Under the pieces are notes generated by a model. It saw only the letters and a list, made by a program, of their open reading frames with translations, made no database searches and was not told the DNA's origin. The translations under genes were made by a program, and so were the position numbers. DNA of 10,891 nt from a virus: UHGV virus genome UHGV-0104605; one strand, written 5' to 3'. Shown here one piece after another: positions 2,010 through 5,547 of this stretch; position 1 is the stretch's first letter, and each line of letters begins with the position of its first letter.

Positions 2010-2827
2010 GCAATCCCCCTGTCTGCAAACTTCCCTTCCCGAACTCCCGTTAACGAGTCTTCCCTCAGCAGGTAATCAAAATCTGCCGTCCAGCCCGTGT
2101 CGTTGTCTCCGAAGTAAAACGGCTTGGCCTGATGCACAAACGCCCTGACATACGCTCTGAAACCGTCCACGTTTGGCGTTTTCAGTTGCGGGATGATTTT
2201 CTTCAGGCGGCGTTTGCGTTTCTCGTTGACCGCAACAGCATGTGGAAGTCTGTCACCGACTTCGGTGTTGTAGGCGTTCAGGAAGGATTCGTAGTCGATT
2301 CGTTCTGCCTTGCGACGTTCAGGTTTAACCTGCCCATCGCCGCCCCCGTTAGGGGGTAAGGGGGTATTTGTATTTATTGTCTTTTGTATATTGTCTTTTG
2401 TGTTTAGCTGACTTGGCTTATACCCATTAGCCGACTTGGCTAATGTTTTATTAGCTGTTTTAGCTAATGTTAAGCTGTCCTGGCTAATCCACTGAGAAAC
2501 CACCTTGTTCACTCCGATTTTCACGCCATCAGCAATGAGGAATTTACGCTCGATAAGCTGGCGCTTGGCAGCGCAAACATGAGTGTGATGAATACCTGTC
2601 ATGGCTGCTATCTGCGTGTTTGTGAGTCGATCCATCGGCTTATTGAATCCGTATGTCTTGCGCATGATAGCGAGCATCACCTTCATCTGCCGGACGGTTA
2701 AATCAGCCATCAGCAGACTGTCGGTAATCTCGTTAGCAACGCGCATGAAACCATCTTCGGTATCTGCCACGCGATGCTCCACGACCTCCAGTTGAGGCCT
2801 GTAATCAGCTAACTTAACGACGCCCAT
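2006..2827 (-). CDS. Replication initiation protein: lambda O-like N-terminal domain with a different, conserved phage C-terminal domain
   Basis: 273 aa. N-terminal segment [28 protein letters not shown] resembles lambda O (RQFKVLLAILRKTYGWNKPMDRITDSQL, from memory). The middle of the gene carries the iteron origin. The C-terminal part ([13 protein letters not shown] ... [18 protein letters not shown]) differs from the lambda O C-terminus, consistent with pairing to a DnaB-type helicase rather than lambda P. Confidence 0.85.
2366..2487. other. Phage origin of replication inside the O-like gene: four about 17-bp iterons plus an adjacent AT-rich region
   Basis: Iterons at 2404-2420 (ttagctgacttggctta), 2427-2443 (ttagccgacttggctaa), 2451-2467 (ttagctgttttagctaa) and 2471-2487 (taagctgtcctggctaa), each with internal dyad TTAGC...GCTAA. 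AT-rich segment 2366-2402 contains the direct repeat ttgtcttttgt twice. The layout (iterons then AT-rich in the direction of O transcription) mirrors lambda ori. Confidence 0.65.
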
Positions 2828-2975
2828 GTTTCACTCCTGCTTTGGCTAGTCTGTAAACACCAACAAGGCGCTCTGCGAACGCCCTGTTATTTGCTGCGGC
2901 TACCACTAATCCCTCAGGTGAATCAGGGTGTCGAATCTCTTCTTTTTCCTGGTATTTCTTACGACGTTTTGTCAT
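2814..2975 (-). CDS. Small basic ORF (53 aa) between cII and the O-like gene
   Basis: ATG at 2975-2973 with GGGAG 5 nt upstream. Translates to [53 protein letters not shown]. Its 3' end overlaps the O start by about 14 nt in another frame. Below the length cut-off of the supplied ORF track. No family recognised. Confidence 0.4.
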   Translation of the reverse strand: MTKRRKKYQEKEEIRHPDSPEGLVVAAANNRAFAERLVGVYRLAKAGVKHGRR

Positions 2976-2979
2976 AATT

Positions 2980-3052
2980 ACTCCCGTGGATTGATCCAGT
3001 CTTTCTACATTAGGCCTCGAAGAATTCGCCGTTCTTCGGGGCTTTTTCTTTT
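2980..3052 (+). ncRNA. oop: oop-like antisense RNA, convergent with the 3' end of cII (5' end approximate)
   Basis: Strong plus-strand intrinsic terminator embedded in the last codons of cII, the same arrangement as lambda oop. A possible -10 (cataat, 2973-2978) lies upstream. The promoter and the 5' end are inferred, not demonstrated. Confidence 0.45.
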
Positions 3053-3288
3053 GTCAGCATTCTGGCTACTTGCTTAGCCAGTTCCGCCAACTCCTCGTCT
3101 TCAACACCCCATTCAAGAACAGCCAGAAGCATTCCCATTTTGGGGATGAAGCTGTCTTTCCATCGCGAAATTTGCGATTCATTAACCCCTAACGCGTCGG
3201 CAACCTTTCGCTGACCACGTACAGCAATTCGATTCAGGATGTTGCTTGTAATTGCATTCGCTTTCTTGCGAGTACTTGTAAGTTGCAT
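3010..3288 (-). CDS. cII: cII-family transcriptional activator (P22 C1-like)
   Basis: 92 aa from ATG 3288 (AAGGA RBS upstream). The track ORF 3010..3348 is trimmed to this start. Motif GVNESQISRWKDSFIPKMGMLLAVLEWGV matches the cII helix-turn-helix and tetramerisation region (lambda GVDKSQISRWKRDWIPKFSMLLAVLEWGV, from memory). Sits between the Cro-proximal nutR/tR1 and the replication genes. Confidence 0.85.
   Translation of the reverse strand: MQLTSTRKKANAITSNILNRIAVRGQRKVADALGVNESQISRWKDSFIPKMGMLLAVLEWGVEDEELAELAKQVARMLTKEKAPKNGEFFEA
3014..3052 (+). terminator. Rho-independent terminator on the plus strand (oop-type)
   Basis: Stem gcctcgaagaa (3014-3024), loop ttcgccg, stem ttcttcggggc (3032-3042), followed by tttttctttt (3043-3052). 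On the minus strand the same region has no U-tract, so it should not terminate the cII-O transcript. Confidence 0.7.
3242..3255 (+). promoter_or_regulatory. cII-binding site of a pRE-like promoter (TTGC-N6-TTGC), directed toward cI
   Basis: ttgcttgtaattgc read directly on the plus strand inside the 5' part of the cII coding region. In lambdoid phages cII binds TTGC-N6-TTGC flanking the -35 of pRE at this position. The -10 is not confidently placed. Confidence 0.55.
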
Positions 3289-3299
3289 ATGTAAGTATT

Positions 3300-3399
3300 T
3301 CCTTAGATAACAATTGATTGAATGTATGCAAATAAATGCATACACCATAGGTGTGGTTTAATTTGATGCCCTTTTTCAGGGCTGGGATGTGTAAGAGCG
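3300..3399 (-). promoter_or_regulatory. nutR (boxA and boxB) and tR1 region between cro and cII
   Basis: On the minus strand, boxA CGCTCTTA (complement of 3392-3399) and boxB GCCCTGAAAAAGGGC (complement of 3368-3382) lie immediately after the cro stop. The following segment (aaaccacacctatggtgtatgcatttatttgcatacattcaatcaattg) matches the lambda tR1 region as I recall it. Confidence 0.8.
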
Positions 3400-3407
3400 G
3401 GAATGTC

Positions 3408-4760
<1,353 letters not shown>

Positions 4761-5220: not shown

Positions 5221-5547
5221 ATGGATGCACAAACACGCCGCCGCGAACGTCGCGCAGAGAAACAGGCTCAATGGAAAGCAGCAAATCCCCTGTTGGTTGG
5301 GGTAAGCGCAAAACCAGTTAACCGCCCTATTCTCTCGCTGAATCGCAAACCGAAATCACGAGTAGAAAGCGCACTGAATCCGATAGACCTTACGGTACTG
5401 GCTGAATACCACGAACAGATTGAAAGCAACCTGCAACGTATTGAGCGCAAGAATCAGCGCACATGGTACAGCAAGCCACGCAGTGAAATGGGGGTGACTT
5501 GTGTAGGTCGCCAGAAAATGAAATTAGGCAGCAAACCACTTATTTGA
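5221..5547 (+). CDS. N: Antitermination protein N, lambda type
   Basis: 108 aa. MDAQTRRRERRAEKQAQWKAANPLLVGVSAKPVNRPILSLNRKPKSRVESALNPIDLTVLAEYH matches lambda N including the Arg-rich boxB-binding motif; the C-terminal 25 aa or so differ at several positions. RBS AGGAGA 6 nt upstream. Preceded by a roughly 270-nt leader after nutL. Confidence 0.92.
   Translation: MDAQTRRRERRAEKQAQWKAANPLLVGVSAKPVNRPILSLNRKPKSRVESALNPIDLTVLAEYHEQIESNLQRIERKNQRTWYSKPRSEMGVTCVGRQKMKLGSKPLI

Follow-up and report, generated by a model that had tools for sequence, protein, structure and literature searches.

A predicted oop-like antisense unit and a gene of the HK97 gp53 family at the cII-initiator junction of a lambdoid phage

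The immunity and replication region

The window analysed here, a stretch of 10,891 nucleotides from the virus genome UHGV-0104605, comes from a lambdoid phage and shows its immunity and replication region in reverse orientation. Its minus strand encodes a DnaB-type helicase (633-2009), an O-like replication initiator (2006-2827; Pfam Phage_rep_O, E=4e-33), a basic protein of 53 aa (2814-2975) located between the initiator and cII, a cII-type transcriptional activator of 92 aa (3010-3288, with its stop codon at 3010-3012; Pfam Phage_CII, E=1.8e-42) and a 434-type Cro (3408-3623). The plus strand encodes a 434-type repressor (3727-4359) and a lambda-type N protein (5221-5547). The cII gene corresponds to those annotated as gene 41 in Sf6 and cII in mEp213. 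Over positions 2700-3400 the window is 99.0% identical to phages HK446 and HK544, and the same segment has matches in 160 phage records, among which are Sf6, mEp213, ES18 and numerous Stx-converting phages.

Two further features of this region were observed. The initiator gene contains four ori iterons (2406-2488), which are AGCYGAYTTGGCTAAT-like and spaced at about 23 bp; a terminator-like match reported by the scan at 2425-2445 is the palindrome of an iteron and not a terminator. Directly 3' of the 434-type repressor gene lies an ORF of 158 aa (4284-4760, plus strand) with a hydrophobic N-terminal stretch and no match in Pfam, which could be a prophage-expressed accessory gene in the rex position.

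An oop-like unit with its terminator inside cII

The initial annotation had placed a strong plus-strand intrinsic terminator in the last codons of cII, and this placement holds. The terminator scan recovers at 3012-3053 on the plus strand an element, here termed the oop terminator (tO), with a stem of 14 pairs (3012-3044) followed by TTTCTTTTGT and a T-run at 3045-3053, such that hairpin and T-run together are encoded by approximately the 14 final codons of cII. The 68 nt from 2986 to 3053 fold with a predicted energy of -27.1 kcal/mol (z = -5.4), which none of 200 shuffled sequences equalled. On the minus strand the hairpin is not followed by a U-run, and hence it should terminate plus-strand transcripts only. 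The number of terminator-like sites between 2400 and 3800 (4 observed against 1.6 +/- 1.6 expected) is in itself unremarkable, unlike the tO hairpin at 3012-3044, which is remarkable.

The helix is also distinguished by its pattern of substitution. In an alignment of 17 distinct homologues to a covariance model, 93.9% of the cells in the tO helix are paired, 6 of its 14 pairs have changed on both sides, and its covariation score of 0.395 exceeds that of shuffles (0.177 +/- 0.02, with none of 500 reaching 0.395) and of slid-partner controls (at most 0.109); these counts are somewhat inflated by the fitting of the alignment to the model structure and by the relatedness of the sequences, but the signal is still clear. 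The covariance-model alignment was used in place of a plain MAFFT alignment of the oop sequences, on which RNAalifold had failed because of misaligned stems. In one homologous locus (L092) the codon changes CCG>CCA and TTC>TTT are both silent in cII and mutually compensatory in the tO stem. These patterns argue that an intrinsic terminator in the coding end of cII has been kept by selection.

Upstream of this terminator we identified a putative pO promoter (2950-2978, plus strand), with the -10 element CATAAT at 2973-2978, a TG at 2970-2971 that makes it an extended -10, and a weak -35-like element TGGTAT at 2950-2955. The assignment draws on three lines of evidence: the segment TTTGTCATAAT is identical in lambda pO, the -10 lies at the same offset in all homologues, and the P22 record carries the annotation 'promoter: oop' at the equivalent place. 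A simple promoter scan of the window missed pO. Within the -10, CAT is complementary to the ATG of the 53-aa ORF, whereas the last base, T2978, falls between this ATG and the ribosome-binding site and belongs to no codon; the promoter as a whole overlaps codons 1 to about 9 of that ORF. The homology predicts an active pO in this phage; against it stand the weak -35, the miss by the scan and the fact that in P22 and BTP1, where the RNA has been detected, the sequence upstream of the -10 is of the orf48 type and not of the gp53 type.

The homology with lambda extends into the transcribed part. The window sequence TTTGTCATAAT-TACTCCC-GTGGATTGATCCAG aligns with lambda TTTGTCATAAT-GACTCCT-GTTGATAGATCCAG, a block which comprises the extended -10 of pO, the start G of oop (lambda 38675) and the first bases of oop. 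The full alignment of the -10 and the oop 5' block pairs window TTTGTCATAATtACTCCcGTgGATtGATCCAG with lambda TTTGTCATAATgACTCCtGTtGATaGATCCAG, and 27 of the 32 bases are the same over TTTGTCATAAT...GATCCAG. This alignment places the predicted start site at G2986. The resulting oop-like RNA of about 65-68 nt (2986-3053, plus strand) would consist of a 5' hairpin (2986-3008) and the terminator hairpin, and would be antisense to 44 nt of cII including its stop codon (3010-3053) and to the 23-nt stretch 2986-3008.

A covariance model built on this terminator unit (R1) scores the window at 98 bits and also recovers lambda oop at its known coordinates (596-676 of the lambda locus, L004). The 5' hairpin and the terminator fold in all ten homologues, drawn from phages of Escherichia, Salmonella, Cronobacter, Erwinia and Enterobacter, as well as in lambda. 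A scan with Rfam gave no match at E<=1 in the window, in lambda or in P22; since lambda itself lacks a match, Rfam evidently holds no oop model and the scan is uninformative. The RNA itself has been recorded in two relatives. In P22 a small-RNA study of 2026 reports an oop read GAUUGAUCCAG...CUUUUCUUU, also given as GAUUGAUCCAGUCUUUCUACAUCAGGCCUC...CUUUUCUUU (PMC13397905), and this read corresponds to the window from 2989 to about 3051. In BTP1 the RNA OOP-BTP1 was annotated from transcriptome data (Owen et al. 2020, PMC7067206), and its body differs from the predicted RNA of the window at 2 of 68 positions (97% identity). The P22 RefSeq record (NC_002371) additionally has the annotations 'promoter: oop' and 'terminator: oop' together with orf48 and gene 18, arranged as in the window, and the closest records, HK446 and HK544, leave the oop unit unannotated. 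The alignment with lambda, the R1 model and the detection in P22 and BTP1 thus bear out the initial suggestion of a short oop-like antisense RNA ending near 3052, with a predicted length of about 65 nt, and support the identification of this unit as a homologue of lambda pO-oop-tO.

In the most divergent members of the family (L094 and L095, 1928-2001) a gap of 72 nt separates the small ORF from the upstream gene, which matches Phage_CII in L095 and has no Pfam match on record in L094. In both, the antisense strand has one hairpin with a T-run in the spacer and another inside the 3' end of the upstream gene, which suggests either a longer oop-type RNA or two alternative ends.

The promoter and the start of the RNA coincide with a conserved lambdoid 'boundary sequence' (2968-3000 of the window, without assigned strand), located by mapping the misc_feature bsq5 of Sf6 (L001, 972-1004) to the window. 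It is reportedly the 'boundary sequence 5' that Clark et al. described in 2001 for lambdoid phages, in HK620. The window block is the same as that of HK620, as bsq5 of Sf6 and as that in Fig. S1 of Hayes et al. 2012, with no difference. A block of 33 bp common to pO and the 5' part of oop has been noted previously (PMC3349717). In functional terms the block can be read as the -10 of pO, a ribosome-binding site and the 5' hairpin of oop.

A second conserved stretch coincides with the -35 of pO and the sequence upstream of it. Codons 8-12 of the 53-aa ORF (2941-2954 on the plus strand, TACCAGGAAAAAGA) are unchanged in five phages from four host genera and vary in three more distant homologues; the unrelated orf48 of P22 has ACCAGGA at the matching offset from its ATG. 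This invariance may reflect a promoter constraint and is suggestive only: these codons are mostly two-fold degenerate and comparable invariance occurs elsewhere in the ORF, which makes the signal weak.

The 53-aa gene and its junction with the initiator

The small ORF (2814-2975, minus strand) starts with an ATG at 2973-2975 preceded at 5 nt by the ribosome-binding site GGGAG (2981-2985). It encodes a protein with a pI of 10.7, in which lysine and arginine number 14 against 6 aspartate and glutamate residues. The protein belongs to PHROG 1331, a family of 'unknown function', with E=1.4e-37 and residues 1-53 aligned to positions 1-53 of the 53-position profile. It is 100% identical to HK97 gp53 and is the equivalent of Sf6 gp42, ES18 gp58 and epsilon34 gp49, with 94-100% identity across these phages and the same position in each; altogether we found it in 97 phage records. 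Comparison with the homologues from Cronobacter, Erwinia and Enterobacter phages gives dN/dS values of 0.04-0.12 (pN 0.10-0.18, pS 0.6-0.78, with synonymous sites near saturation). The early description of a very basic 53-aa ORF with a good ribosome-binding site over the start of O proves accurate, and by its substitution pattern the ORF is a real gene under strong purifying selection.

The family is narrow: clustering at 90% identity gives 68 clusters, and 24 representatives, all of them small proteins with no fusions among them, were retrieved when 1.84 billion representative proteins were searched with a profile. All members are small and come from phages or prophages of Enterobacterales. 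Length and gene order are conserved throughout the 24 cluster representatives, and the order cII > ORF > overlapping Phage_rep_O > DnaB helicase is found even in the remotest members. Profile searches of Pfam, NCBIfam, PADLOC and PDB gave no match for the protein, a Foldseek search of its model against viral structures returned nothing below E=3.8, and a literature search on HK97 gp53 produced nothing relevant. The AlphaFold model (pLDDT 68) has a disordered, basic N-terminal segment of 19 residues and two helices.

P22 and BTP1 carry in the same slot an unrelated basic ORF of 48 aa (orf48). We considered homology between the window ORF and P22 orf48 and rejected it, as the similarity in both translation and DNA alignment ends about 4 codons after the shared ATG. 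In the BTP1 record (NC_042346; L097, 4567-4713) the orf48 homologue is unannotated, and in the P22 RefSeq record (NC_002371; L009, 2350-2496) orf48 is labelled 'tail protein', apparently in error, since it is an early-region ORF of 48 aa.

The junction with the initiator (2814-2838, minus strand) comprises an overlap of 14 nt (2814-2827), which runs from the ATG of the O-like initiator (2825-2827) to the stop codon of the small ORF (2814-2816) 11 nt further on, and the initiator's own ribosome-binding site AGGAG (2834-2838), situated inside the 53-aa ORF. The overlap is retained in distant homologues, and its conservation makes it plausible that the two genes are translationally coupled. The idea that codons of the small ORF sequester the initiator's ribosome-binding site was rejected: the site is predicted to be paired in some homologues and overall no more than in shuffles, of which a fraction between 0.01 and 0.73, depending on the homologue, gave values equal to or lower than the observed one.

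Eighty IMG/VR loci (L010-L089) encode an identical 53-aa protein followed by initiators of at least three types, which share their start (window equivalent 2797-2827) and diverge after codon 10; one of these types has no Pfam match and is only 22% identical to the window O. In P22 and BTP1 the initiators that follow orf48 begin with MSNLATVTPIK..., and then continue with the same body. The small ORF therefore travels with about the first 10 initiator codons as a single cassette.

The slot between pO and the initiator holds a gp53-type gene in the window, an orf48-type gene in P22 and BTP1, and none in lambda, and the first codons of the slot genes would at the same time supply the antisense promoter with its upstream half. 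One might speculate, as an unlikely extension of these observations, that the interchangeable, unrelated basic proteins of about 50 aa in this slot are dedicated modulators of replication initiation or of the choice between lysis and lysogeny, made in fixed ratio with the initiator, rather than passengers.

Mechanism, alternatives and relation to known lambdoid systems

Based on these observations we consider it very probable that the interval combines two known elements of the lambdoid early-right operon, namely a plus-strand pO-oop-tO unit and a gene of the HK97 gp53 family. In the proposed scheme pO, whose -10 lies over the start codon of the next rightward gene, would produce an RNA of about 65 nt from 2986 or 2989 to about 3052 that terminates at tO inside the final codons of cII. 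Its most likely function would be that of its lambda counterpart: the RNA would pair with cII mRNA, the duplex would be cut by RNase III and cII expression would fall, a mechanism documented only for lambda (Krinke & Wulff, cited in PMC7067206 and PMC3985674). The firing of pO against pR-driven transcription may in addition cut read-through into the replication genes. The 53-aa gene would start from the ribosome-binding site and ATG position that serve O in lambda; its 14-nt overlap with the true initiator start makes coupled translation of the two probable.

The initial annotation had gone further and had the antisense RNA complementary both to the 3' end of cII and to the 5' region of the small ORF, with potential coupling of cII and small-ORF expression to initiator translation. 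The complementarity to cII stands, over the 44 nt noted above. That to the small ORF does not: from its predicted start at G2986 (the P22 read corresponds to 2989) the RNA would end 1 nt short of the ribosome-binding site and 11 nt short of the ATG, and it is therefore not complementary to the coding 5' end of the ORF. What lies over the first codons is the promoter; the predicted RNA reaches no further than the leader in front of the ribosome-binding site. A form of this proposal in which the RNA pairs with the translation start of the ORF as well as with the cII end, and represses the ORF and through coupling the initiator, could still appeal to G2986 abutting GGGAG, so that a duplex ending 1 nt away could hinder 30S binding, and to the 14-nt overlap with the initiator. 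We nevertheless regard it as improbable, as both the homology with lambda and the P22 read give an RNA that lacks the ribosome-binding site as well as the ATG, and as the initiator is provided with an AGGAG of its own, the predicted occlusion of which is inconsistent across homologues. Moreover, oop is reported to leave the stability of O-P mRNA unaltered in lambda (PMC3985674), where the geometry is the same except that O occupies the place of the ORF. The suggested coupling to initiator translation is unsupported.

A link to replication through the act of transcription is somewhat less likely than not. Here pO transcription itself, and not the RNA, would tune the flow from pR to the small ORF, the initiator and the origin, in line with the 'dual promoter' model of lambda, which is compatible with the antisense role. 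Inactivation of lambda pO is reported to raise pR read-through and to lower the replication of lambda plasmids, and oop RNA levels to have little effect (PMC3985674); furthermore, the -10 keeps its fixed offset in all homologues even where the body of the RNA differs. Against this, the covariation in tO and the retention of a two-hairpin RNA argue for selection on the RNA itself, and the distance from pO to the origin exceeds that in lambda by 148 nt. On our analysis pO interference could act alongside the antisense role, and it connects the unit to replication on better grounds than antisense coupling does. With respect to the small gene, we find it very unlikely that the ORF lacks a protein function and either arose by chance or is only a leader whose translation brings ribosomes to the start of the initiator. 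The absence of a known domain or fold, the low pLDDT of its model, the lack of such an ORF in lambda and the unrelated ORF in the P22 slot would fit such a reading, but its amino acids are conserved at the dN/dS values given above while synonymous sites approach saturation, and both length and gene order are maintained across the cluster representatives.

Under the preferred reading of two known elements side by side, the locus matters mainly for correct annotation. A model of the R1 type could annotate oop across lambdoid prophages, which would be useful given that the unit is unannotated in HK446 and HK544 and that Rfam has no oop family. The gp53-family protein is conserved, selected and tied to the initiator start in many phages of Escherichia, Salmonella and Shigella and in Stx-converting phages, Stx2a_F349 and phage 1717 of O157:H7 strains being examples of the latter.

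The unit resembles pO-oop-tO of lambda (OOP 77 nt, lambda 38675-38599), which is likewise antisense to the 3' end of cII, has a homologous 5' block, places its -10 CATAAT after TG over the start codon of the next rightward gene, and forms two hairpins of which the second is an intrinsic terminator inside cII. The window RNA differs in being ~10 nt shorter, in the sequence of its terminator hairpin, in an unrelated -35 region and in its overlap with cII (44 nt against 55 nt in lambda), and the gene whose ATG lies in the pO -10 is the 53-aa ORF in the window and O in lambda. The layout is identical to that of oop, orf48 and gene 18 of P22 (NC_002371; Backhaus & Petri 1984, as cited in PMC13397905): there too the oop terminator lies inside c1, the oop promoter lies over the start of a small ORF, that ORF overlaps the initiator start, and the RNA, with an identical 5' block, is detected. 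The differences from P22 are that orf48 (48 aa) is unrelated to the window ORF beyond ~4 codons and overlaps gene 18 by 8 nt as against 14, and that the upper stem of the P22 terminator is a different, covarying variant of that in the window. Between the window ORF and HK97 gp53, Sf6 gp42, ES18 gp58 or epsilon34 gp49 there is no substantive difference. Hayes et al. (2012) described the cII-oop-orf-O organisation, including the gp53 homologues, and pointed out that lambda lacks the orf48 present in P22; their alignment of 23 phages, HK97, Sf6, ES18 and P22 among them, is numbered with position 1 at an ATG, be it that of O in lambda, of an orf48 homologue or of a homologue of HK97 gp53 (PMC3349717). 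As this layout is annotated in P22 and published for 23 lambdoid phages, the cII-oop-small ORF-O arrangement of the window is an already known and ordinary one.
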